DNA of 32,000 nucleotides from Microcystis aeruginosa NIES-2549. Its GTDB lineage: Bacteria > Cyanobacteriota > Cyanobacteriia > Cyanobacteriales > Microcystaceae. Positions 1 to 26,704 of this stretch are shown one piece after another (the first letter of the stretch is position 1; every line of letters starts with the position of its first letter). The stretch is from the NCBI RefSeq assembly GCF_000981785.2, contig NZ_CP011304.1:2070001-2102000 (forward strand). Reading direction: 5' to 3'. Position numbers and translations under genes: made by a program. Under the pieces are notes generated by a model that had not been told where the DNA came from, ran no database searches, and saw only the letters and a list, made by a program, of their open reading frames with translations.

Positions 1-156
1 CATGTAACTTATAGTCTATAATAATAATTGGCTGAAGGCAACTTTTAAAAATGAGTATCCCCAGCAAACCTGAAAGCGATCTTTCCTGTCAACCCAGTCG
101 CGGTGACAACCCACCGTTTACAATAGTTAAGAACCAACGGCAAGCAAGAATTAACG

Positions 157-2592
157 ATGCGGATTTCGATCAACTGGTTACGAGAATTAGTCAAAATTGT
201 CCAATCTCCCCAAGAATTAGCCGAATTATTGACAATTGCGGGAATAGAAGTGGAAGAGATCGAGGATCGCCGAGAATGGGCAAAGGGTGTGGTTATTGGT
301 AAAATTATCGATCGCCAACCCCATCCCAACGCAGATAAATTAAGTGTCTGTCAGGTGGATATCGGTCAGGAAAACCCTAGTACAATTGTCTGTGGTGCGC
401 CCAATGCTAGGGCTGATATTCTAGTTCCCGTGGCTACTTTGGGAACTCATTTACCAAAAATCAATTTAACGATTAAACCGGCTAAATTGCGGGGGGTAAA
501 ATCGGAAGGGATGATCTGTTCCCTCGCAGAATTAGGATTAACTAAGGATTCTGAAGGAATCCACATTTTTAGTCAGGAAAATCTCCCTTTAGGTACAGAT
601 GTTCGTCCCCTTTTAGGACTCGATGAGGTGATTTTAGATATTTCTCCCACCGCTAACCGTGCCGATGCTTTGAGTATGATCGGAGTTGCGCGAGAAGTGG
701 CGGCTTTGACAGGAGGAGAATTAAGCCTACCAAAAGTGAAATTAGGGGAATTTTCCCCTAAAAAAGATTTAACGCTGGAAATATCAGAAAATACAGCCTG
801 TCCTGCTTATATTGGTACGGTGATCGAGGGGGTAAAAATTGGCCCATCTCCGCTATGGTTGCAACAGCGTTTACAGGCAGCCGGACTGCGATCGATCAAT
901 AATGTGGTCGATATTACTAATTATGTCCTCTTGGAGTGGGGACAACCTTTACACGCTTTCGATCGCGATCGTTTACAAAGTTTTGCCGGAGGTAAATCCG
1001 TTACTATTGGGGTCCGTTTTGCCGAGGAAGGGGAAAAAATTATTAGCCTTGATGGTCAGGAAAGAAGCTTAAAAGAGCTTAATTTGTTAATTACTGCCAA
1101 TAATAAGCCGGTAGCTTTAGCGGGGGTGATGGGAGGTCAAGATACGGAAGTTAACGAGGAAACCGTTAATCTTGTGCTAGAGTCGGCTTTATTCGATCCG
1201 ATCGCTATCCGTCGTTCCTCAAAAGCGCAGGGTTTACGCAGCGAATCTTCTGGACGCTATGAACGCGGTGTTAATCCCGCCGCTTTGGAATATGCTTGTC
1301 AAAGGGCGATCGATTTAATTCTAGAGTTAGCTGGGGGAACTGTCAGCAGTCAGGTTAAAGCTGATTATCGTGCCGATCAGTCCAGTCGTTTGATCGAATT
1401 GCGTTTAGAACGTTTGCAGCAGCTACTGGGTCAAGTTACCCTAGATAATGGTGCGATCGGTGAAATTCTCGCCGAAGATGTGGAACGGATTTTAGGCAAT
1501 TTAGGCTGTGAATTGCAGTTAACCTCGAAAAATCCTGTTCTGTGGACTGTGACAGTGCCAGACTACCGTTATCGGGATTTAGAACGAGAAATTGACTTAA
1601 TTGAAGAAGTGGCGCGACTGTACGGATATGATCGCTTTGTCGATACTTTGCCAGCAAAAACCGCAGCCGGAGGATTATCCTTTGAGGAAACTATACAGCG
1701 TCGGGTACGGGAAGCTTTTCGCGCAGTGGGTTTGACGGAATTAGTCCAGTATTCCCTAGTTAAACCGGAATTAGCGGAAGTTGTCCTCGCTAATCCCCTT
1801 TTTGTCGAGTATTCTGCTTTGCGGACTAATCTCCTCGACGGTTTAATCGAAGCGTTTGAGTATAATCAGTCTCAGGGTAACGGTTCCTTAAATGGCTTCG
1901 AGATCGGGCGAGTTTTCCGCTCAGAATCGGATAATATCAACGAATACGATGCGATTGCTGGCATTTTTGGCGGTGATTTCTTCCCGGCCGGACGTTGGCT
2001 GCGATCGGGTAAAGAGGTGGCCATGACTTGGTATGAAGCAAAAGGCATTTTAGAAGCAGTATTCGATCGCCTTTCGCTGACAGTAAGCTACGAAAAATAT
2101 GCCGAAGATGCGCGTTTTCATCCCGGACGAACAGCCTCTTTATGGATTGGTAAACAACGACTAGGAATTTTTGGTCAACTACACCCGCAATTGCGTCAGC
2201 AAAAGGGATTAATTGAGGCAGTTTATGCCTTTGAAATCCGGTTCCCGATCCTGTTAGCAACTCTTAGCGATAGTGCCAAAATTACCCCGCGTTTACAGGT
2301 CTATTCTACCTATCCGGGGGCAGCACGAGATATCGCCTTCTTTGTTTCTACAGATATACCCGTAGATAGATTGACAAAAACTATCAAAAATGCTGGGGGA
2401 ACTCTTTTAGAAAAAGTCGAATTATTCGATCGCTATCAGGGGCAGAATGTGCCAGAAAATCATTGTAGTTTGGCCTTTAGTTTAGTCTATCGTGCCAGCG
2501 ATCGAACTTTAACCGATGAAGATGTGGAACCCTTAATGACAAAAGTGCGAGAAGCTTTAGTTAAACAGTTCCAAGTTTCTTTAAGAAGTTAA
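157..2592 (+). CDS. pheT: Phenylalanine--tRNA ligase beta subunit
   Basis: 811-aa ORF. It has the N-terminal tRNA-binding (OB) start '[12 protein letters not shown]', B3/4 and B5 regions, and a C-terminal ferredoxin-fold anticodon-binding tail ('FDRYQG...[20 protein letters not shown]'), all typical of bacterial PheT. Confidence 0.95.
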
Positions 2593-2757
2593 ATTCAGCG
2601 ATCAATTATCAGTTATCAGACATCGACTTTATATTATCTCAAGAATAATCTCACACATCGCTATCAATATCGCTGATTGCCTCTAATTGTTACCAATCAG
2701 TTTAAGAGGTTGGAATGGTTCTTTTTTAGACTCGATCTCCTCTAAGAAATATTACAA

Positions 2758-4107
2758 TCAATCGCTTTTGATATACGCTTTAAAAATAGATGATAATTGA
2801 AATCGGTTTTGCTCCCTTTGAATTAAATAACGTTGTTGCAAGGATTGTAAACCATTGATTAAATCACTAGCAGATAAATCTAGGTTATTTTTTAACTCCT
2901 CTCTAGATAAAGGTTGATTAACTTTACTTAATTCTAAGGCGATTTGTTGGGCAAGGGGAGAACAGCGACCAAAAATTTGTTTTAAATGAGACTGCATTTT
3001 TTTAGTAATAACTAAGCTATTTTCTGCCAAGAAATCATTAACCTTGCCATCAAAAACATCTTTAATCAAAACGGCAATATCAGTTAAATAAAAAGGATTA
3101 CCTTCGTATAATTGAATTAATTCTAACCATCTTTCCCCATCTTGTAAACCTTTATTTTCAAGAAAATCAATCGCTTCAAATCCTGATAATTCTAAGCATT
3201 GAATAGGAGAATTTTCTTGATTAAGATAGTTCATTTCCGCCGATTTTTCTTGACTAATGAGAATAAAATGGCTCTGGTGTTGGATTTCTGCAATCAGTTT
3301 TAAAAAATGTTGATAACTACTATATTCAGGTTGATAATTACCCGCCATTTGACCAACAGCAAAAAGATTTTGAAAATCATCTAAGACGATTAAACATTTA
3401 TGATTGCTTAGAACTTCTAACAATTGCTGGATTTTATTATCGGTGCTTTCTTTCGGTTCTTTTTGGCAAGTATTCAATAAATCATTTAGCCATAAATCTA
3501 AAGACTTAGGAAATTTTAAACTTTTCCAAATCACCACTTCAAATTGTTCTAAATTGAGATCAATAAATCGTTTAACTAGGGTGGTTTTTCCTATTCCCCA
3601 TAATCCCAAAACGGCAATTAAGCGAGTATTTTGCTTAAACACCCAGTTCGAGATTGTTGCCAGTTCATTTTCTCGATCATAAAAGTCAATAATTTGGGGA
3701 GCAAGGGTTAGATCATGATAGATTGATTCAGATTGAGAGTTATTATTACTATTTAAGTCATTTTCGTTATACAATCTTGTATTTTCTGTAGGACAAAGAT
3801 TATTATTATTGCCATTAATACTATAAATATTAGAATTTTTTAATGATTTAATATACACTCTTTCTAAGACAGAACGGGAAGTAGATTTTTTTATATCTTT
3901 TTCTAAAACCTCTGATAAAAGCTTCCATAATTTAGCACCTTCCTCTCTAATATGAGTCTCACTGCGGTGATATTCGTTACCTATTTCTTGATAACTCTGT
4001 CCTTGCCAACTCCCTTCAAAAATAGCCTTCTGGATAGTATTTAGCGGCTTTTTATCTCGCTCAATAAGGCGTTCGTCAATCAGTTGTAAGACTTCCGTGA
4101 TATTCAT
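2758..4107 (-). CDS. STAND NTPase of the NB-ARC/APAF type: N-terminal HTH-like module, no C-terminal repeat sensor
   Basis: 449-aa ORF. Walker A 'GLWGIGKTTLVKRF', Walker B 'CLIVLDDFQN', an 'ILISQ' hhhTTR-like motif and an 'EGNPFYL' GxP motif. The N-terminal ~80 aa ('LNTIQKAIFEGSWQGQSYQEIGNEYHRSETHIREEGAKLWKLLSEVL') resemble the sigma70-r4/LuxR-like HTH module common at N-termini of cyanobacterial STAND proteins. An Asn-rich low-complexity linker follows. There is no WD40 or TPR tail. Confidence 0.75.
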   Translation of the reverse strand: MNITEVLQLIDERLIERDKKPLNTIQKAIFEGSWQGQSYQEIGNEYHRSETHIREEGAKLWKLLSEVLEKDIKKSTSRSVLERVYIKSLKNSNIYSINGNNNNLCPTENTRLYNENDLNSNNNSQSESIYHDLTLAPQIIDFYDRENELATISNWVFKQNTRLIAVLGLWGIGKTTLVKRFIDLNLEQFEVVIWKSLKFPKSLDLWLNDLLNTCQKEPKESTDNKIQQLLEVLSNHKCLIVLDDFQNLFAVGQMAGNYQPEYSSYQHFLKLIAEIQHQSHFILISQEKSAEMNYLNQENSPIQCLELSGFEAIDFLENKGLQDGERWLELIQLYEGNPFYLTDIAVLIKDVFDGKVNDFLAENSLVITKKMQSHLKQIFGRCSPLAQQIALELSKVNQPLSREELKNNLDLSASDLINGLQSLQQRYLIQREQNRFQLSSIFKAYIKSD

Positions 4108-4353
4108 ACAATCGACACAGCAAAAGACTTTTGGGTATTATAGCCCAACTAAATCCCACTTTTTCCAATTTTCAGAAAAATTTACCCGACAAAACTCCCG
4201 ATAAAATCCGATGTTTAGGGGTTGTCACTTTTTGGAAGCGTTTGGCATGATGGAATGTAGTTAAGCAAAACAGACCTAAAACTAACCACATCTAACTCAG
4301 CGACGCTAGTTCTAAGTATTATTGCTTATGTCTCAGTTTAACGTAGGTATTTT
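4108..4353. promoter_or_regulatory. Divergent intergenic region between the STAND gene and the plus-strand island genes
   Basis: 246-bp non-coding gap between head-to-head genes, so it must carry at least the STAND gene promoter. I could not assign -35/-10 boxes with confidence. Confidence 0.3.
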
Positions 4354-4539
4354 ATGACGAAGTTCGTTTTAGACAAATATGCGCTCGATTCTAAAAAATC
4401 AGAAGCTAAGGCAAAAATCGTCGGTTCATTGGGTTCAAATGCCTCAATTTCAGGGGATCAGATAGAAGTCCCCAGTTATGACGCGAGTAAAGTGGTTCAG
4501 ATTTTAAGTCAAGTTGGTATCAAGTATTCGGGGGGGTAG
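4354..4539 (+). CDS. Hypothetical 61-aa protein ending in Gly-Gly
   Basis: ATG-initiated ORF in the island. The C-terminus is '...IKYSGG' followed by a stop. The last codons lie in a G7 homopolymer (4530-4536). I recognise no family. Confidence 0.4.
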   Translation: MTKFVLDKYALDSKKSEAKAKIVGSLGSNASISGDQIEVPSYDASKVVQILSQVGIKYSGG

Positions 4540-4664
4540 ATTCAAATGTCGGACATTGTTAATCACTCAAAAATATCAATGTAGCAGATCAAAACTGAAT
4601 CTGTCGTAAAGTTTACGATGCACAATCCAAGATAATTTTTACTCAACCCTAAATAATATTAGTC

Positions 4665-5021
4665 ATGAAAAGCAAAACAAAAAAACTAACTATGGTTTTT
4701 ATTTTGACAACCATTATATTCAATTCTCAAATTTTATTACAACCAAAAATTTCTAATGCGCAAACAGCTACTAAAAGGTTGTGTTGGGATGCGTATTATT
4801 CATATCTAAACACTAATGTTGGCGACGGATATATTGTTAGTAGTTCTACTCAAAAAGCAACTTATATGAATATGGTTTTTAGATGTGCAGAAAATTATCT
4901 AAATATGGTAGAGAAGGATTCTCGATACTGTCGTGAGGCCTTAGAATACGCTAACATGATATTACCTAACTTAGCAACAGTATTAGCATCACAAATTATC
5001 TTTAAATGTACAAATCGTTAA
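4665..5021 (+). CDS. Small secreted Cys-containing protein (hypothetical)
   Basis: 118-aa ORF with a Sec-type signal peptide ('MKSKTKKLTMVFILTTIIFNSQILLQPKISNA|QT'). The mature part of ~85 aa has 4 Cys. It lies 16 bp upstream of the next gene. Confidence 0.55.
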   Translation: MKSKTKKLTMVFILTTIIFNSQILLQPKISNAQTATKRLCWDAYYSYLNTNVGDGYIVSSSTQKATYMNMVFRCAENYLNMVEKDSRYCREALEYANMILPNLATVLASQIIFKCTNR

Positions 5022-5037
5022 CAAGGGAATCTCGAAC

Positions 5038-6507
5038 GTGCTTCAGAAATTTAAGAAACGTGTAAGTAAATTATCGCTATTCATCATATTATTACTATTT
5101 CAGATAGTTAGTTTTACAACAACAGTCAATGGAACTAGAATTTTACTAGGCCATTTAGACCTATTAGGAATAGGCTCATTCAAATTTCCAGCTTATCTTT
5201 TTTTTGGATTAGGCATTCAGCTATTTATATTGTGGCTTTTTTTATTGGGTGAACACGCACTAAGATCACGTTTTACCTTATGGTTATTAGTTTTTGTTTA
5301 TACATTGCTCAGTATCTATACAAGCTTTTTCTCTCTTTACGAAGGCATTAGTCGAGAAAAATTATCAGAAACAACTTCTGCTATAAAACAGAGTGAGGAA
5401 ATCGTGAGACTTATCCAAGCTAATAAAAAATATCAAGATCAGAATAATCGCTACTCGGAACTTGAAGAGGAGATAAAAAATGCAGAAGAAGACAGAACAG
5501 ATATCTGTAAAAGAGAATTCGGCGGATTCTACGGTTGTGAAGATGATCCACGAAAAATCGCAATTGACAACAAGATAAGTACACTCAAACAGGAAAGGGG
5601 GAAGTTAGCGGGGAAAGTTAAGACGTTTAATGATTTTCTTAAAAATAAAGGAGAAAACTTTGGCAAATGGACAGCCGAAAAAATTTATCTAGAAAATGGA
5701 AAGGTTATATCACTTTTCTCTGAAGAAATTCCCCAAAATACTCGAGAGGAGCTAGAAAAACAAGCAGGAACGCAAAATTTCTTTTTATTACCTTTTGTAA
5801 AACTGCTGGAAGGAGATAAGAATGCAATCTTTGCTGTTTTTATTGCCTCTATACTAGACTGTACATCAGTTTTAATCGGACTTAATCCAGAAACAATTAA
5901 GAGAGATAGATTTAGAACCGTTATAAATGCTCTTATTTTGGTAAAAAATAAAACAACTCTGGGAATAAGAAATTTCTTACCCCATCTAATCGAAGTTACT
6001 GGTCATACAATATCTACTATTGTTCGTTCTATTGCTGGACTCCCTAATGGAATTATATATGGTGTACTTGCAGGACTTCAAAGAACTTTTCAGATTTTTA
6101 TCCGTACAAATAACACCTTTACAATTCGAGGAAGAAGACAAGATTTTTTAGAAAATTTATGGGATAGTATTGATCATTTTAGAATTGGTTCTATCAATAG
6201 TCAAGATCATCAAGGTCATGTAATAAATTGTAAAAAACTGATGTTATCTTCTCAAGATAATCAGTCATTTAAACGTGGATATGAAAAAATTCTTAATAGA
6301 ATGGAAAGGTTAGAATGGGTTCAAAGAATTAGACACAGTAATGACACCAAATTTGAAATTCTAGAGTATGAGAAATTTGAGCAATGGTATTTAAAAGAGC
6401 ATAACAAAAGATTCGATCAAGAAAGACACGATATGTCAGGAGTTAATACTTTTAAAACAGTTATCTATCTCCCTCCAATTTCTCGTAAAAAAACAAACAA
6501 AAACTAA
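5038..6507 (+). CDS. Polytopic membrane protein with a central coiled coil (hypothetical)
   Basis: 489-aa ORF with a GTG start. There are three N-terminal hydrophobic helices (about aa 12-30, 50-72, 78-100). A charged heptad-rich segment follows (about aa 105-200, 'KKYQDQNNRYSELEEEIKNAEEDR'). Two further hydrophobic segments are 'IFAVFIASILDCTSVLIGL' and 'IAGLPNGIIYGVLAGL'. The C-terminal domain is basic. Confidence 0.65.
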   Translation: MLQKFKKRVSKLSLFIILLLFQIVSFTTTVNGTRILLGHLDLLGIGSFKFPAYLFFGLGIQLFILWLFLLGEHALRSRFTLWLLVFVYTLLSIYTSFFSLYEGISREKLSETTSAIKQSEEIVRLIQANKKYQDQNNRYSELEEEIKNAEEDRTDICKREFGGFYGCEDDPRKIAIDNKISTLKQERGKLAGKVKTFNDFLKNKGENFGKWTAEKIYLENGKVISLFSEEIPQNTREELEKQAGTQNFFLLPFVKLLEGDKNAIFAVFIASILDCTSVLIGLNPETIKRDRFRTVINALILVKNKTTLGIRNFLPHLIEVTGHTISTIVRSIAGLPNGIIYGVLAGLQRTFQIFIRTNNTFTIRGRRQDFLENLWDSIDHFRIGSINSQDHQGHVINCKKLMLSSQDNQSFKRGYEKILNRMERLEWVQRIRHSNDTKFEILEYEKFEQWYLKEHNKRFDQERHDMSGVNTFKTVIYLPPISRKKTNKN

Positions 6508-6539
6508 ATTTTAAAATTAAGTTCCAAAAGAGGTTTACC

Positions 6540-7631
6540 ATGAAAATGCAAGAAAGAGAATGTTCTAATCAAGGCGAGACTCTAGGCATGGGGTTTGATT
6601 CCTTAAAAAATATTCTCTTACCCAATAGTGCTATAGATTTGAGTAATGTTAATGAAGATAGCATACAATCTGAACAAGTTCCCGTGGAAGAGTCTTGTTC
6701 TTTTGCTCATATAGAAAATGAGGCTATGCTATCAAAGTCATTAAGCCTTTCTGCAAACATTGATTTTAAAATTGGAGGTGAGGGATCTGGACTGGACATT
6801 CCATGTATTTTATCTGCAAGTGCAAAAGGAGGTTATTTTAGAAGTGTAGAAATGAAAGAAAATAATTTATATATTCTGCTCAACTATCAGTTGAAGAATA
6901 CTGCTTACAGAATTACGCACCCCAAGTTATCGGCTGAAGCAGAAAATATTCTATCTAATTCTTCTGATTTTTTGGAGTTCAGGAAAAAATTTGGAGATGA
7001 ATTTATTATTGGTTTTAGAACAGGTGTTGAATACACTGCATGGATAGAAGTGTTAGATATAAAAAATAATGAAAAAGAGAAAACATATTTGAAAATTAAT
7101 TCAGCAGTATCTGAATTATTAGCATTATTAGGAATACCCACCCAACCAATTGATGGCAATCTTCAAAATGATTCAGAACAGACTCTCAAAAACTATTCTA
7201 GTAGAACTTTATGTTTCAAGAGACCTCCGAATATAAATGAAAGTGGTGTGATTTTAACTCTAGATCGGTTAATTTTTGACTTTATAGATTTTAGAAAACA
7301 AATTTCGAGTTCGAGTAAAAAGCATTATAAATATACTGCGGTTTTTGCAGATTATGATCAATTAGTTGAAGTCCGTCATGATATTTTAACACCAGAACTA
7401 AAACGCCTTAAATCTAAACTAAACCGATTGAGAGGTATCAAAATACAAAAGCAAATTCAATTGTTAGGAATACAAAATCAATTAAGATTTCAAGGACAAG
7501 ACCTTGAATTAAATGAGCAGCTTAGAAAATTATATAATTATGTTTATGAGTTAGATGATTTTATGAACGAGTGTTTATTTCTTCCAGACTCTATGACTGA
7601 TGAAAGATATAAACTATACCTAAATTCATAG
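6540..7631 (+). CDS. Cytoplasmic protein with MACPF/perforin-like motifs and a C-terminal coiled coil (putative pore-forming effector)
   Basis: 363-aa ORF with an AGAGG RBS 8 nt upstream and no signal peptide. 'TLGMGFDSL' matches the LGxG[YF]D first-strand motif of MACPF domains. 'DFLEFRKKFGDEFIIGFRTGVEY' aligns with the [YF]GTH[FY]x6GG signature region in degenerate form. The domain call is inference from motifs only. Confidence 0.6.
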   Translation: MKMQERECSNQGETLGMGFDSLKNILLPNSAIDLSNVNEDSIQSEQVPVEESCSFAHIENEAMLSKSLSLSANIDFKIGGEGSGLDIPCILSASAKGGYFRSVEMKENNLYILLNYQLKNTAYRITHPKLSAEAENILSNSSDFLEFRKKFGDEFIIGFRTGVEYTAWIEVLDIKNNEKEKTYLKINSAVSELLALLGIPTQPIDGNLQNDSEQTLKNYSSRTLCFKRPPNINESGVILTLDRLIFDFIDFRKQISSSSKKHYKYTAVFADYDQLVEVRHDILTPELKRLKSKLNRLRGIKIQKQIQLLGIQNQLRFQGQDLELNEQLRKLYNYVYELDDFMNECLFLPDSMTDERYKLYLNS

Positions 7632-7666
7632 ACCTGTAAAGTGAGTACTAATCTTGTAGCACAATC

Positions 7667-7720
7667 GCTTTTCTTATCGGGTGCATTATACTTTGTTAAT
7701 GCACCTTATTTGTTGTCTAT
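7667..7720. repeat. Hairpin repeat family A, copy 1 (hairpin flipped)
   Basis: 'cgcttttcttatcGGGTGCATTAtactttgtTAATGCACCttatttgttgtctat'. The flanks match copies at 8555-8610 and 10582-10638. The 8-nt loop is the exact reverse complement of the loop in copy 3. Confidence 0.85.
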
Positions 7721-7813
7721 AATTTAAAAGATTGAGATAAGGGCAGTTTGTTGGGTTGATTTTGCGTTAAAATTAAGTTAGATATGTCTTAATTAATAAA
7801 ACTTAGCAAGACA

Positions 7814-8053
7814 ATGAATACTTCGATTACTTTTCAAGAAATTGCCGCCGAAATTCAATTATTTGATAATATTGAACAAAAAGAACAATTTATTTTTGTA
7901 GTGGGTGCTTTAGTTTCTCGCATCATCAGTCTTCATAAAGCCGCAGAAATCATGGAAATGGATACAGAAATGTTCTTGAAAATTTTAGAATTAATGGGAA
8001 TCGATTTTTCTTATCTTACTACAGAAGACATAGATAGAGAAAAAAAATGGTAA
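7814..8053 (+). CDS. UPF0175-family antitoxin-like protein
   Basis: 79 aa. 'ISLHKAAEIMEMDTEMFLKILELMGIDFSYLTTEDIDRE' matches the UPF0175 HTH core. It overlaps the downstream DUF3368 gene by 7 nt. Confidence 0.8.
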   Translation: MNTSITFQEIAAEIQLFDNIEQKEQFIFVVGALVSRIISLHKAAEIMEMDTEMFLKILELMGIDFSYLTTEDIDREKKW

Positions 8054-8523
8054 TCTCTATGAAAATTGTTTTCAATTCTTCCCCTTTAATCTTTTTGTCT
8101 CAGTTAGGATTTTTAGAAAGATACCTAGATTCTAATGATAATTTTTATTTGCCTGCAACCGTACAACAAGAAATTAATGCCAAACAAGATCAATCTTCAG
8201 AGACTCTTAATAAGCTGATCAATCAACAGAAATTAATTATCCTAAATATTAAATTAATCTCTCTAGCAAATAGTTTAAATGAACGTTTAGGAAAAGGTGA
8301 ATCTGATGCCATTACTTTAGGAATAGAATTACAAGATGACTTTGCAGCAAGAAAAGAAGCACTACACTTAGGCTTAAATGTTAAAGGAACTTTAGCGATT
8401 ATTCGTAAACTTCTCAAAGAAGGAAAGATAGAAATTGAAAATTTGGAGAGTTTTTATCAAAGACTTAGAGAAATTAACTTTAGAGTCAAGCGTGAGATAT
8501 TTGAGAGCATTTTTGGAGACTGA
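8047..8523 (+). CDS. DUF3368-family PIN-like nuclease (putative toxin)
   Basis: 158 aa. 'VFNSSPLIFLSQLGFLE', 'LGKGESDAITLGIEL..DDFAARKEALHLGLNVKGTLAIIRKLLKEG' and 'INFRV' are typical of DUF3368, the usual partner of UPF0175. An alternative start is Met5 at 8059. Confidence 0.8.
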   Translation: MVISMKIVFNSSPLIFLSQLGFLERYLDSNDNFYLPATVQQEINAKQDQSSETLNKLINQQKLIILNIKLISLANSLNERLGKGESDAITLGIELQDDFAARKEALHLGLNVKGTLAIIRKLLKEGKIEIENLESFYQRLREINFRVKREIFESIFGD

Positions 8524-8554
8524 GTGTGATACTGAAGGCACTGCGTAGCAGCAC

Positions 8555-8610
8555 GCTTATTTTGTCGGGTGCATTAACAGAGTATAATGCGCCTTATTTC
8601 TTGTTATTGA
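8555..8610. repeat. Hairpin repeat family A, copy 2
   Basis: 'gcttattttgtcGGGTGCATTAacagagtaTAATGCGCCttatttcttgttattga'. It overlaps the stop codon of the minus-strand 60-aa ORF. Confidence 0.8.
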
Positions 8611-8776
8611 TGGATTCCCACCATAACTTTAAATCACTTTCATTAATCTTTTTTTGAAGATATTCAATCTGATCTGAATAGCTGAGATTTTTCATGTCTT
8701 CAGCCATTTTTTCTTGACTGGTTTGTTTAAAAGCTAAACAGTCAAAACTTTTTTTAATTGTCGTTGGCTTCATCAA
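8594..8776 (-). CDS. Small hypothetical protein, third gene of the DUF433/PIN operon
   Basis: 60-aa ORF overlapping the 3' end of the PIN gene by 23 nt. 'FDCLAFKQTSQEKMAEDMKNLSYSDQIEYLQKK' resembles small proteins often seen next to cyanobacterial TA genes. The support is weak. Confidence 0.4.
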   Translation of the reverse strand: MMKPTTIKKSFDCLAFKQTSQEKMAEDMKNLSYSDQIEYLQKKINESDLKLWWESINNKK

Positions 8777-9227
8777 TTGTTACCTCTAAAGGAGAAATAA
8801 TAGTCAAAATCCCGTAGCCATTAAGTAAATTAATTTGATTATAGCCTTTCATTTTATCTAGGCGCACAATATGTTTAAAATTCCATGATATGATTGCATC
8901 CGCTCTAGCTATTGTAGCAGCCGCTACATGAGTAGCATCATTAATAGACTTTGATGTAACAACTCCTTCATTGATATAAGCATCCCTTAACTGTAAAACT
9001 TCAGGTGTTATCTTAACTACTTCAATAACTCTCTGCGGAATCGATAATAAAATATCTTTAACCGCTTGGGGGGCATTAATTAATTCGCTAACAATGATAT
9101 CACTCATTAACAAAATAAACTTTTCTTGCTTAATGGCTTCCATCAATTGATTGGACTCTAAGGAAAATTCATCATCTAAACAGCCTCCAATGACTGATGT
9201 ATCGATATAAATTCTAAGTTGTTTCAT
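8754..9227 (-). CDS. PIN-domain protein (VapC-like toxin)
   Basis: 157 aa. 'IYIDTSVIGG' supplies the first acidic residue. 'INDATHVAAATIARADAIISWNFKH' is a typical PIN C-terminal motif. Confidence 0.8.
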   Translation of the reverse strand: MKQLRIYIDTSVIGGCLDDEFSLESNQLMEAIKQEKFILLMSDIIVSELINAPQAVKDILLSIPQRVIEVVKITPEVLQLRDAYINEGVVTSKSINDATHVAAATIARADAIISWNFKHIVRLDKMKGYNQINLLNGYGILTIISPLEVTIDEANDN

Positions 9228-9242
9228 AACGATTTTAGCTCG

Positions 9243-9545
9243 TCAATTTAATATTTTCTCAATTAAAGATGGTTTGTTGCCTTGTAGTTGTTTAGCAAAA
9301 GTTTCTCCTGCTTCAAGTTGTCGTCTAATTTCTTCTCGATTGTCATGGTAATAGGCCAAGGCCGCATAAACATCTGCTAGGGTGATAGTAGGATGATGAT
9401 AAATAATTTCATCTGGTGACATTCCCATTCTTTCATGCCAAATTACAATATCTTGAACTTTAATTCGATGTCCAGCAATACGAGGTTTTCCGCCACAGAT
9501 ACCAGAAGTGATTTCAATATGTTGTGAGATAACTAAAGATGACAT
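9243..9545 (-). CDS. DUF433-domain protein (antitoxin-like)
   Basis: 100 aa. 'ICGGKPRIAGHRIKVQDIVIWHERMGMSPDEIIYHHPTITLADVYAALAYYHDNREEI' is the DUF433 signature. It sits 15 bp upstream of the PIN gene. Confidence 0.85.
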   Translation of the reverse strand: MSSLVISQHIEITSGICGGKPRIAGHRIKVQDIVIWHERMGMSPDEIIYHHPTITLADVYAALAYYHDNREEIRRQLEAGETFAKQLQGNKPSLIEKILN

Positions 9546-9611
9546 AATTACTTGCCAATAAGATCAATCAATCCTTGTTATTATACCATTTTTTCCCAGT
9601 AAGGCAACATC

Positions 9612-9670
9612 AGTGCGATCGCCGATATTGTAGGTTGGGTTGAGGCACGAAACCCAACAGGATCAACTAT
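9612..9670 (+). repeat. HIP1-headed 60-bp hairpin repeat, copy 1
   Basis: 'aGTGCGATCGCCgatattgtagGTTGGGTTgaggcacgAAACCCAACaggatcaactat'. A second copy lies 139 bp downstream. Confidence 0.85.
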
Positions 9671-9750
9671 AGCAATTCTCTAACTTATGAGGTACAGTAG
9701 CAACAGTGAGTAAACCAATTGCGAATATATTTTTGAGTAACTTGTAACAT

Positions 9751-9810
9751 AGTGCGATCGCCGATTTGGTAGATTGGGTTGAGGCACGAAACCCAACATG
9801 ATCAACTATT
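9751..9810 (+). repeat. HIP1-headed 60-bp hairpin repeat, copy 2
   Basis: Near-identical to 9612-9670, with a few substitutions, in the same orientation. Confidence 0.85.
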
Positions 9811-9815
9811 AATTT

Positions 9816-9922
9816 ATACTAAATTCGGTTATTAAAAACTGATTATTTATTCCCCCTTTTGCCTCTTGCCTTCTGCCTCTTGCCTCTCCTGATATGTAGC
9901 ATATACTCAACGGATTTAGTAT
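9816..9922 (+). mobile_element. MITE family 1 (~107 bp), copy 1
   Basis: Imperfect terminal inverted repeats 'ATACTAAATTCGGTT...CAACGGATTTAGTAT' and a CT-rich core 'ttgcctcttgccttctgcctcttgcctctcc'. By eye it is identical to 16164-16270; identity extends over about 111 bp including 2 flanking nt on each side. Confidence 0.8.
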
Positions 9923-10095
9923 TATTTGGTTGGTGTTGGGTTGCACTTTGTTTAACTACATTTTGGCAATAAAGAGGCGATTAGGGTTGATAAACGGCGA
10001 ACGCTAATCTTGTAAGCTTTAAAAAGTGCTATATAAAAAACTAAACAAACTATAATTAAAATTACTGCAAAAATTTAGAGAGTAAAGAAGGAAAT

Positions 10096-10350
10096 ATGAC
10101 AGAAATAGTTTTTTTAGTGGAAGATGCACCGGAAGGGGGATATACAGCAAGGGCATTAGGCGAGTCTATTTTTACCGAAGCCGATGATTTACAATCTTTA
10201 CGAGAAATGGTAAAAAATGCCGTTAATTGTCATTATGATGATAGGGAAAATCGCCCTAAAATTATTCGTTTACATATTGTTAGAGTGATTAATTTTTACT
10301 TTTTTCAAATAATGCTTCGTCAATTAGAAAATCAAGTTTTCCAGCTATGA
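10096..10350 (+). pseudogene. HicB-like (UPF0150) antitoxin, 3'-truncated
   Basis: 'MTEIVFLVEDAPEGGYTARALGESIFTEADDLQSLREMVKNAVNCHYDDRENRPKIIRLHIV' is a typical HicB-like N-domain. After about 10275 the frame runs into the antisense of a convergent gene remnant and loses similarity. No HicA is nearby. Confidence 0.55.
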
Positions 10351-10474
10351 AATCTTCCTCAATTTGTTTTTCCCATTGTTGATCGTCTAACTTATTGATC
10401 CAATTTCTTAAATACAAAAATTAATCAGAAGTAAGGCTTTCAATTTTTGCTTGAATTAATTGTAACTTTGTCAT
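10289..10474 (-). pseudogene. Small TA-associated-type gene with an in-frame TAA stop
   Basis: The minus-strand frame reads 'MTKLQLIQAKIESLTSD*FLYLRNWINKLDDQQWEKQIEEDFIAGKLDFLIDEALFEKSKN*'. It is one continuous frame interrupted at codon 18. Confidence 0.5.
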
Positions 10475-10581
10475 CTTAGTATCTTTCCACAACAATAGTT
10501 CAAATTTGAGTTTTATATTATCATTTTTTCTGTAAAAATGGGAATTTGCGATCACATTTGGCAGAATATTGGAAGTGTGAT

Positions 10582-10638
10582 CGCTCTTATTATCGGCTGC
10601 ATTAACAAAGTATAATGCACTTTATTTGTTGTCTATTG
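10582..10638. repeat. Hairpin repeat family A, copy 3
   Basis: 'cgctcttattatcGGCTGCATTAacaaagtaTAATGCACTttatttgttgtctattga'. Confidence 0.85.
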
Positions 10639-11009
10639 ACGAATTCAATAAACATAAGATAAAATACTGTTGATACTCGTAACCATTAAAGAGAGATATG
10701 AACATCAATTCTATTCAAGATAACTCTTTACTCTTTAAGAAACCCGTTTTCTCTCTCGATCCTACGGTTTTCTGAGTTCCTCGTACTGTTCACTACGGTT
10801 CTTCCGAACTTACACTGTAGAAAATTCCGCAAGCTCCCTCTCCGTCCAGCAATGCTCTAAAGTTGATATAGCAGTTTTCATCAGAATGAGGTATGGGCAA
10901 GGGGCTTAAACCCTTTGTTGGCAAAACTTGTCGATACCTCAGTAACGTGAAAAGCGCTATAATGAAACCTACTCCCTTGATGAAGTGTTGAGAGAAATAG
11001 AATAACCTT

Positions 11010-26336: not shown

Positions 26337-26587
26337 TTTCTGGTCTTAATTATCTGAGCAAAGCTAGTTATCGCTGTATCTTGAGTTTAGGCAGTGCTGG
26401 CAGTATTTTAAGTCTCGCTAGTGCCAGCAGCATTTTAAGTCTGGTTAGTATCGGCAGTATGCTCAGTATTGGCAGTGTTGGCAGTATTCTTAGTATTGGC
26501 AGTGTTGGCAGTATTCTTAGTATTGGCAGTGTCGGCAGTATATTTGGCATTTTTCAATATCATTCTCTGCCTAACTATCCTGAGTAG
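26333..26587 (+). CDS. 84-aa Ser-rich nonapeptide-repeat protein, translationally coupled to the channel gene
   Basis: The ATG at 26333 overlaps the channel stop codon (ATGA). It has six tandem 9-aa units: SLGSAGSIL, SLASASSIL, SLVSIGSML, SIGSVGSIL, SIGSVGSIL, SIGSVGSIF. The ORF track start at 26285 lies inside the channel gene and is less likely. Confidence 0.5.
   Translation: MISGLNYLSKASYRCILSLGSAGSILSLASASSILSLVSIGSMLSIGSVGSILSIGSVGSILSIGSVGSIFGIFQYHSLPNYPE
26384..26545 (+). repeat. Six tandem 27-bp repeats (coding)
   Basis: The last three units are nearly identical ('agtattggcagtgttggcagtattctt'); the first three are diverged. All keep the reading frame. Confidence 0.9.
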
Positions 26588-26650
26588 TTCTAATGAACTA
26601 TTCATTACCGCTTCTTTGTCGATGGCGGTTTTTTGAGTTTAAACTGTGGA

Positions 26651-26683
26651 GCGATCGCTTTTTATGCAAACAAAATAGAAAGG
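26651..26683. repeat. HIP1-capped hairpin repeat family B, copy 1 (partial)
   Basis: 'GCGATCGCtttttatgcaaacaaaatagaaag'. It lacks the distal HIP1 present in copies 2 and 3. Confidence 0.7.
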
Positions 26684-26704
26684 GTATTAATCGGATTAAG
26701 GGAT

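Follow-up and report, generated by a model that had tools for sequence, protein, structure and literature searches.

Proteins of the MACPF superfamily are the pore-forming executioners of animal immunity, among them perforin, the complement membrane attack complex and MPEG1; bacterial MACPFs have, to our knowledge, been described solely as toxins that target other cells. STAND transcription factors are represented by MalT and by AfsR/SARP-NB-ARC-TPR proteins, and regulators of the BrxR/CapW type precede many different defence systems. In bacterial gasdermin systems and in the Pepco and EACC1 systems linked to Avs, a latent cytoplasmic pore former is encoded beside a sensor or switch on a defence island, and the outcome is abortive infection (PMC12642450; PMC10153256). 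The NTP-dependent conflict systems described by the Aravind group include the vWA-MoxR-VMAP ternary system, iSTAND and the EAD-adaptor systems (PMC7159879, PMC8195603). Here we analyze a stretch of 32,000 nucleotides from Microcystis aeruginosa NIES-2549 (NZ_CP011304.1, positions 2,070,001 to 2,102,000; referred to below as the window), in which an AT-rich block following pheT carries a STAND NTPase gene on the minus strand and, divergent from it, genes for a 61-aa protein (s61), a 118-aa protein (sp118), a 489-aa membrane protein (TM489) and a 363-aa protein (MAC363). The explanation we prefer, at even chances, is that these genes belong to a modular, horizontally mobile conflict locus, acting in anti-phage defence or programmed cell death, and that the effector of the locus in this genome is a cytoplasmic MACPF pore former. 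The five open reading frames, their strands and the gaps of 16 and 32 nt were all found as the original prediction for this DNA gave them.

MAC363 resembles members of the MACPF/CDC superfamily in predicted fold and topology, in a signature-like FGDEF-x6-GV motif, in a beta-amphipathic TMH1 region and in having relatives that match Pfam MACPF. It differs from them in being much smaller, with a core of ~280 aa, in being too divergent for Pfam, in lacking a signal peptide, and in having a C-terminal helical hairpin where they have a membrane- or receptor-binding beta domain. It also differs in having an obligate polytopic membrane partner and in its linkage, on a mobile island, to a STAND NTPase. 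The bacterial MACPFs known so far attack other cells, whereas MAC363 is predicted to act from the cytoplasm.

The logic that we propose for the MAC363 locus is the same as that of the gasdermin and Avs-Pepco/EACC1 systems (PMC12642450; PMC10153256), with another effector fold, no licensing protease and a membrane partner instead. Identity with gasdermin, Pepco or EACC1 was rejected, since no gasdermin was among the 50 Foldseek matches listed for MAC363 and there was no Pfam EACC1 or Pepco match, no protease and no PADLOC match. Membership of Avs was also rejected; PADLOC gave only a weak PDC-S27 match for the STAND NTPase, the N-terminus of which is a helix-turn-helix (HTH) domain, and there is no C-terminal sensor. 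The PDC-S27 match (4e-10) covers the NTPase region only, and PDC-S27, itself an unvalidated, archaea-enriched candidate ATPase, was rejected as an identification. With MalT/AfsR and BrxR/CapW the locus shares a nucleotide switch fused to an HTH, divergent from an operon and fronting interchangeable cassettes; it differs in the type of the HTH (HTH_VMAP-M9), in domain order, in having neither a sensor repeat nor a WYL domain and in the additional s61, and DNA binding by its STAND is a prediction.

The systems of the Aravind group (PMC7159879, PMC8195603) resemble the locus in their bias towards cyanobacteria and multicellular bacteria, in combining a STAND with variable effectors and in the VMAP-M9-derived N-terminal domain, and neighbouring loci share EAD4, CHAT, TRADD-N-like and DUF1822 components with them. 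The locus differs in having no MoxR, no VMAP-C and no EAD pairing. It is not a vWA-MoxR-VMAP ternary system, as MoxR, vWA and VMAP are all absent from 2593-7720 and only the HTH_VMAP-M9-type domain is common to both. In the two papers the term MACPF has 0 occurrences, 'perforin' occurs once and in a eukaryotic context, and the 61-aa component was not found (PMC7159879, PMC8195603). No description of a MACPF or perforin-like module in an anti-phage, STAND, NLR or cyanobacterial context was found in the full-text literature searched, the journal coverage of which is incomplete. The gene combination, which the original prediction had not recognised as a named defence system, matched no named system in PADLOC, Pfam, NCBIfam or the searched literature. 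The comparison partly supports placing the locus among STAND-based modular conflict systems, in which a cytoplasmic MACPF with a membrane partner as effector and an HTH-STAND with a 61-aa protein as constant front end would be the new elements.

The AlphaFold2 model of MAC363, built from an alignment of 115 relatives, had a predicted local distance difference test score (pLDDT) of 86.9 and a predicted template-modelling score (pTM) of 0.84. It superseded an earlier model made from the 13 close homologues only, which had a pLDDT of 55.7 and weak Foldseek matches that were already to MACPF proteins. The predicted topology is the canonical MACPF one, with a bent four-stranded central sheet and two helical clusters (TMH1 and TMH2). 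When the model was compared to the PDB with Foldseek, all 50 of the 50 matches listed were MACPF/CDC structures, the best at 7e-7 and a probability of 1.00, which is the outcome that the original prediction had left to a structural comparison. The E-values were 7e-7 for stonustoxin, 1e-5 for C8 beta, 3e-5 for perforin and Photorhabdus Plu-MACPF, and 1e-4 for pneumolysin; Bacteroides BT_3439, TgPLP1, pleurotolysin B, CDCL and astrotactin-2 were also among the matches listed. In the viral structure library BFVD the only significant matches were giant-virus MACPF proteins.

Just ahead of and inside strand beta3, MAC363 carries the motif FGDEFIIGFRTGV (aa 151-163). This reads F-G-D-E-F-IIGFRT-G-V, while the MACPF signature is [YW]-G-[TS]-H-[FY]-x6-G-G. 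MAC363 retains the spacing of the signature together with its Gly and aromatic positions, but has D-E for T/S-H and Val for the last Gly. The consensus of the MAC363 family, GDxFxxGxxTGG, has the spacing of the MACPF signature, and most relatives have the GG. The strongest beta-amphipathic periodicity of the protein was found in TMH1, at aa 64-82 (0.74) and 87-99, that is in the stretches LSKSLSLSANIDFKIGG and IPCILSASAKGGY, and this alternating pattern is as expected for a region that refolds into a membrane hairpin. TMH2 (177-211) has a moderate beta-periodicity of 0.46-0.54.

MAC363 has close homologues in just 13 clusters; by an exhaustive profile search, 780 relatives were recovered at E<=1e-3. 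For s61, sp118, TM489 and MAC363 there was nothing beyond noise in Pfam, NCBIfam, PHROGs and PADLOC, and searches of PDB sequences likewise gave noise only, both with single sequences and with profiles. Among distant relatives, 30 of 96 match Pfam MACPF (best 1.9e-9) and two of 96 match Thiol_cytolysin. The original prediction had called the protein MACPF-like from its motifs, a guess that is supported by the fold, by the Pfam matches of its relatives and by the signature-like motif. By its modelled fold MAC363 is a divergent MACPF and a putative pore former. One distant MACPF relative, P0034 (L016 5450-7174), is fused to a C-terminal GUN4 (tetrapyrrole-binding) domain, and around it NB-ARC and HetE-N genes are located on the opposite strand.

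A tblastn comparison of the five window proteins covered 15 loci, which belong to Microcystis, several metagenomic cyanobacteria, a Prochlorococcaceae metagenome-assembled genome (MAG), Richelia and Rivularia. The TM489 gene was located directly upstream of the MAC363 gene in all 15. s61 preceded the pair wherever upstream DNA exists, except in L013-L015, and an HTH-NB-ARC STAND was encoded divergently upstream in every sufficiently long locus except L013. The set of STAND, s61, TM489 and MAC363 was found in Microcystis and in at least three further lineages, flanked by pheT in the window, isoamylase in L001, GSHPx in L003, an ndhF-like gene in L007 and ndh genes in L024. The chromosomal flanks are different, and the four genes therefore travel together. 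The original prediction had asked for co-occurrence of all five genes, and within them of the 118/489/363-aa trio. Four of the five (STAND, s61, TM489 and MAC363) do co-occur in different contexts and the 489/363 pair holds in 15 of 15 loci, but sp118 is restricted to Microcystis and deleted in some of its strains.

The divergent HTH-NB-ARC STAND/s61 pair was found to be followed by one of at least three downstream cassettes. Cassette (a) consists of the membrane protein and the MACPF protein. Cassette (b) encodes TerB, an AAA ATPase and two small proteins, the AAA matching IetA at 1e-32 in PADLOC, and cassette (c) encodes a vWA protein (vWA-TerF-like domain) and an AIG1/GIMAP-like GTPase. The STAND phylogeny does not track the cassette type. 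The window STAND, which heads cassette (a), is 91-95% identical to STANDs carrying cassette (c), and L024 (cassette a) and L023 (cassette b) have STANDs that are 90% identical and s61 proteins that are 100% identical. L028, which represents the same chromosomal site as the window with pheT upstream and toxin-antitoxin (TA) cassettes downstream, carries the vWA and GTPase genes where the window has sp118, TM489 and MAC363. The two DNAs are 96-97% identical over 1-4458 and show no similarity from 4459 to 7719; similarity is found again from 7720. The left breakpoint of the exchange is thus at 4458, inside s61, and the right one at 7720, just past a 51-nt hairpin repeat. The location of the left breakpoint gave the idea that s61 co-varies with the cassette type, which was rejected as a rule because L023 and L024 share an identical s61. 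Judged from these alignments, STAND and s61 are the constant unit of the locus and TM489/MAC363 one interchangeable cassette.

Two loci had further arrangements. In L005, cassette (a) is followed by an AAA gene and two small genes that resemble cassette (b), and in L030 s61 and an AAA gene adjoin a CHAT-NACHT protein. In both (L005 3603-11002 and L030 2921-10853) the s61-headed cassettes are next to DUF1822 and CHAT(-NACHT/CHASE2) genes, and one of these genes has a weak TRADD-like_N match. This suggests a further link between the s61/AAA cassette and caspase-like STAND systems.

TM489 had homologues in 8 clusters only and neither Pfam nor PDB homology apart from coiled-coil noise. Hydropathy and alignment place its hydrophobic segments at aa 8-33, 50-75, 79-101 and 262-284, and by the positive-inside rule the coiled-coil is predicted to be extracytoplasmic and the C-terminal domain to lie inside. 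Between Microcystis strains, region 5005-5491 of the TM489 gene is ~90% identical and 5491-5666 cannot be aligned, while the rest of the module is 97-99% identical. This hypervariable patch (5005-5666) corresponds to aa ~1-210, that is to the N-terminal transmembrane (TM) helices and the predicted external coiled-coil loop. TM489 resembles DUF4407 proteins in architecture, and in L017 a true DUF4407 protein is likewise encoded immediately upstream of a MACPF relative; there is no detectable sequence homology between the two. Assignment of TM489 to DUF4407 (PF14362) was rejected: TM489 had no match, its L003 orthologue had a match in the coiled-coil only (E 0.052), hhalign with true DUF4407 gave a probability of 1.8%, and hmmsearch found coiled-coil matches only. 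It is thus an architectural analogue.

The N-terminus of sp118 consists of KSKTKK, a hydrophobic stretch and then SNA/Q, and its Cys residues are at 40, 74, 89 and 115. No family match was found for it in Pfam, NCBIfam, PADLOC or PHROGs. It is present in the Microcystis loci L007, L009, L010 and L012 only, was removed by a precise deletion (4614-5004) in L008 and L011, and is absent from every non-Microcystis locus compared. By this distribution sp118 is a dispensable, Microcystis-only accessory.

These two proteins bear on the question whether MAC363 could instead be a toxin directed at other bacteria or at grazers. It would then be exported non-classically; TM489 would serve for export or immunity, sp118 for immunity in the periplasm, and the STAND-HTH would be no more than the transcriptional regulator. 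Bacteroidales BSAP MACPF toxins and CDCL toxins perforate other cells, and we know of no characterised bacterial MACPF, CDC or CDCL protein that acts otherwise. The distant relatives of MAC363 carry PASTA (13 of 96), lectin, LGFP, crystallin or PLAT domains in place of the helical hairpin, which would be targeting domains in such a toxin; sp118 has a signal-peptide-like N-terminus and four Cys, and the most variable part of TM489 is the predicted extracytoplasmic loop. Nevertheless, we consider an exported toxin rather unlikely. MAC363 and all 12 close homologues lack a signal peptide or hydrophobic leader, and no secretion system, ABC exporter or lipoprotein signal was found in any locus. An essential immunity protein would not be absent outside Microcystis and deleted in some strains as sp118 is, and the same front end heads cassettes of an intracellular type (IetA-like AAA with TerB; vWA with GTPase).

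The front end was analyzed in the same manner. In the STAND NTPase, Walker A (GLWGIGKT, 168-175) and Walker B (LIVLDD, 239-244) are both intact. Pfam gave 32.7 bits for NB-ARC (cut-off 23.5), with NACHT, ATPase_2 and AAA_22 also above cut-off, and weak PDB matches were to the plant NLR Sr35. In precomputed annotation, PF26355 HTH_VMAP-M9 is assigned to the L007 and L009 orthologues, which are 98% identical to the window protein, as well as to all front-end STANDs seen, and in a Pfam scan aa 30-54 of the window protein matched Sigma70_r4 weakly. The protein is thus not a bare NTPase, which corrects the original prediction. Its description as sensor-less does hold, in that Pfam detected no repeat sensor family (TPR, WD40, LRR or HEAT) and the protein ends ~160 aa after the NTPase core, a length that is the same in all 8 aligned orthologues. 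It is predicted to be an active NB-ARC switch with an N-terminal HTH.

The search with s61 found 32 clusters. The family has a mean column identity of 80% and an invariant G60, and 23 of 26 sequences end in GG. Everywhere but in L030, s61 heads the genes that diverge from an HTH-NB-ARC STAND. No match was found in Pfam, NCBIfam, PADLOC or PDB; one member is named 'HMA domain-containing' in UniRef, and we read the sequence as a beta-alpha-beta-beta-alpha-beta pattern, which would be HMA/ferredoxin-like. The conserved C-terminal GG would also allow a ubiquitin-like or ThiS/MoaD protein, but the HMA-like pattern fits better than a beta-grasp, and no E1, E2 or JAB gene was found beside s61 in any locus compared. 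s61 may supply the missing sensor or may act as an anti-activator.

Between the STAND and s61 genes there is a conserved core at ~4153-4212 (ATC...TTTCC...ACAAAAC..C.G...AAATC.G.T), the blocks of which are invariant across seven loci whose STANDs share just 41-55% identity. An imperfect direct repeat (CCCAACTAAATCCCACTTTT and CCCGATAAAATCCGATGTTT, 53 nt apart) is also present. The core is a candidate promoter or operator. The intergenic DNA as a whole is not more conserved than the coding DNA, the two being about equal (53-70%), and only the core blocks stand out. A structured RNA was looked for and rejected, as there was no Rfam match at E<=1 over 2400-10000.

The base composition of the island is foreign. 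Over 2501-10500 the G+C content (GC) in 500-nt windows was 0.29-0.39, mostly 0.29-0.35, compared to 0.43-0.47 in pheT and 0.41-0.52 from 11.5 to 21.5 kb. For the island as a whole (2593-10650) it was 0.323, against 0.438 in the remainder of the window, and for 2593-7720 alone 0.321. The repeat HIP1 (GCGATCGC) has 20 copies in the window where 0.23 are expected, none of them before 9615. Its core CGATCG occurs 52 times in the window and not at all between 2505 and 9615, where 14.8 copies are expected at flank density (Poisson P ~4e-7, a value somewhat overstated because the island is AT-rich). Both the AT-rich block and the HIP1-free stretch of ~2.6-9.6 kb, which had been seen by eye, are thereby confirmed. 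Of the limits 2593-7720 that had been given for the block, 7720 is a genuine unit boundary, although the AT-rich composition continues beyond it through the TA cassettes to ~10.6 kb. In every host compared the module was found to have a GC of 0.28-0.37 and almost no HIP1, with flanks at 0.36-0.60; in the Prochlorococcaceae MAG it was likewise low-GC although the flanks have 55-60% GC. The module is 97-99% identical to that of M. aeruginosa EAWAG127a (locus L007), and pheT of the window is 96.7% identical to that of the Microcystis-type contig L028. A phage or plasmid origin was rejected, with 0 matches in the phage collection and one weak match to a Bacillus thuringiensis plasmid. This sole plasmid match was to MAC363 (NZ_CP044980.1 31702-32226, a hypothetical protein, 28% identity over aa 1-191, E 5e-4).

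Composition and surroundings matter for a second alternative, in which the genes are a stress or membrane-remodelling regulon with no role in conflict, the HTH-STAND being a MalT/AfsR-like factor for envelope or metal stress and MAC363 a non-lytic protein. Non-lytic MACPF roles are known in animals for astrotactin and Torso-like, and astrotactin-2 is among the structural matches of MAC363. The alternative cassettes with TerB and a vWA-TerF-like domain, the resemblance of s61 to an HMA-type fold, and a STAND that bears a DNA-binding-type rather than a killing domain would all suit this explanation. However, a patchy, strain-specific distribution, foreign composition, TA surroundings and swapping at one site are together the signature of accessory conflict genes and not of a housekeeping stress response. 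Moreover, the alternative cassette has an AAA similar to IetA, which represents a known family of defence ATPases, and the strict amphipathic beta pattern of TMH1 is that of a membrane-inserting hairpin. We therefore regard a stress regulon as quite improbable.

In L017, P0030, a remote MACPF relative with a weak direct Pfam MACPF match, is encoded 1 nt downstream of a true DUF4407 membrane protein and beside an EAD4-NB-ARC-TPR STAND. The DUF4407 protein has a TM489-like architecture (three TM helices followed by a long coiled-coil, a further TM helix and a helical C-terminal domain) and no detectable homology to TM489. This arrangement, with its different parts, is independent evidence for STAND, membrane partner and MACPF as a functional grouping. 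It is very improbable that STAND/s61 and TM489/MAC363 are independent selfish cassettes that merely meet at one recombination hotspot, as could be argued from the TM and MACPF pair without STAND/s61 in L013, from s61 and AAA without an HTH-STAND in L030 and from the region being a cassette array bounded by a shared hairpin repeat, because STAND(-), s61(+) and cassette(+) retain this order and orientation in at least six different chromosomal contexts with STAND identity down to 41%, s61 and cassette are co-oriented, separated by short gaps and closed by a single terminator-like hairpin, and the second, sequence-unrelated pair of L017 is again beside a STAND.

For a conflict locus with a cytoplasmic MACPF effector we propose the following course of events. 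A trigger, possibly sensed with the help of s61, would lead to nucleotide-dependent activation of the STAND; a part in sensing is proposed for s61 because the STAND is without a sensor domain. The STAND would then turn the cassette on, preferably as an activator of transcription that acts with its HTH on the conserved intergenic element. We lean slightly towards transcriptional over direct protein-level activation of the cassette, because near-identical STAND/s61 pairs serve unrelated cassettes and the HTH faces a conserved non-coding core. Transcription would not be the whole story, in view of L017 (STAND without HTH) and L013 (no front end). TM489 would recruit MAC363 to the membrane, perhaps via the C-terminal hairpin of MAC363. 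There MAC363 would oligomerise and its TMH1 and TMH2 clusters would refold into amphipathic beta-hairpins. The resulting pore would perforate the producer's own cytoplasmic or thylakoid membrane from inside, leading to abortive infection or dormancy. The hypervariable patch in the predicted external loop of TM489 and the location of the module among TA cassettes are in agreement with a role in conflict.

Several observations weigh against this proposal. The template-modelling scores of the MAC363 model against solved MACPFs are modest (0.25-0.40), MAC363 itself has no Pfam match at E<=1 and hence neither PF01823 nor PF01289, and the final Gly of the MACPF signature is Val. The PASTA, lectin and crystallin domains on its distant relatives are typical of toxins against other cells. 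In L013 the TM and MACPF pair has no front end within 1.6 kb, and in L017 the STAND beside the TM and MACPF genes is a different one that lacks the HTH, so that the link cannot be purely transcriptional in all cases. The locus was found to contain neither a protease nor any other step known to license a lethal pore former, which leaves the control of self-killing unexplained. Finally, PADLOC recognised no system, which fits novelty and equally fits a function other than defence.

More tentatively, and with the odds somewhat against it, the locus could be a bacterial, cell-autonomous executioner of the perforin/membrane attack complex type, in which a minimal cytoplasmic MACPF docks on a dedicated membrane partner under NLR-like STAND control and kills the infected cell from within, and in which a universal, effector-agnostic STAND and s61 front end takes up unrelated killing cassettes (MACPF, IetA-like AAA with TerB, or vWA with a GIMAP-like GTPase) through recombination at defined boundaries. 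If so, it would be a bacterial counterpart of NLR-controlled pore-forming death with a pore family other than gasdermin, and MACPF would join gasdermin, TIR, cGAS/STING and NLRs among the immune modules that have a prokaryotic counterpart. A new regulatory architecture for cyanobacterial defence islands would be revealed as well. The four-gene system would be tractable for asking how a MACPF stays inactive in its producer and how it is targeted to the inner membrane face, and the STAND and s61 front end offers a handle for discovery, as anything encoded behind it in a cyanobacterial genome becomes a candidate effector. Among toxic bloom formers Microcystis is the main one, and defence or suicide modules that differ between strains are relevant to the control of blooms by cyanophages and to the collapse of blooms.

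Table 1. Features of the island and its neighbourhood, in nucleotide positions of the window unless marked aa.
Feature	Position	Strand	Description
STAND NTPase	2758-4107	-	449 aa; HTH ~aa 1-85, Asn-rich linker, NB-ARC, helical/winged-helix tail
Divergent intergenic region	4108-4353	.	246 nt between the STAND and s61 genes
s61	4354-4539	+	61 aa, ends YSGG, divergent from STAND
Exchangeable cassette	4459-7719	+	3' half of s61, sp118, TM489, MAC363, terminator hairpin
sp118	4665-5021	+	118 aa, signal-peptide-like N-terminus, 4 Cys
TM489	5038-6507	+	489 aa, polytopic coiled-coil membrane protein, 16 nt after sp118, 32 nt before MAC363
TM489, predicted layout			three N-terminal TM helices, coiled-coil of ~150 aa, fourth TM helix, soluble C-terminal domain of ~200 aa
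MAC363	6540-7631	+	363 aa, leaderless, divergent protein of predicted MACPF/CDC fold, last gene before the hairpin
MAC363, MACPF core	aa ~1-280		AlphaFold2 model
MAC363, C-terminal helical hairpin	aa 285-361		AlphaFold2 model
MAC363, predicted topology	aa 48-228		beta1 48-57, TMH1 61-100, beta2 110-124, beta3 154-171, TMH2 176-217, beta4 221-228
Hairpin repeat, 51 nt	7666-7716	+	stem GGTGCATTA / TAATGCACC, then T-rich tail
UPF0175 + DUF3368/PIN-like TA	7814-8523	+	
PIN	8754-9227	-	
DUF433	9243-9545	-	

A terminator-like hairpin was called at 7679-7706, after the MAC363 gene and within the 51-nt repeat listed in the table. Further copies of this repeat follow later cassettes (8554-8604 and 10582-10632), so that the MACPF operon, the UPF0175/DUF3368 TA pair and the next cassette all end in it. 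The repeat has the layout CGCTT..TCGG-GTGCATTA-loop-TAATGCAC-CTTATTTGTTGT. In the first copy the 8-nt loop reads as the reverse complement of that in the two others, with the flanks in unchanged orientation. Related segments of ~60 nt recur several times among the TA cassettes of L027 and L028. The repeat could serve as a terminator common to the cassettes, or as a site at which they recombine and are shuffled. The same TA cassettes were found in other orders and combinations (with HicA, DUF5615 and PIN) in L007, L008, L027 and L028.

Downstream of these genes there is a 59-nt direct repeat (9612-9670 and 9751-9809, 93% identical) with one HIP1 site per copy. These sites end the HIP1-free stretch, and homologous copies of the repeat are present in L027 and L028. 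Further along the window, a 27-nt tandem repeat of 5.6 copies is located at 26390-26541, and adjoining it nine HIP1 sites are packed within 1.2 kb (26650-27800).

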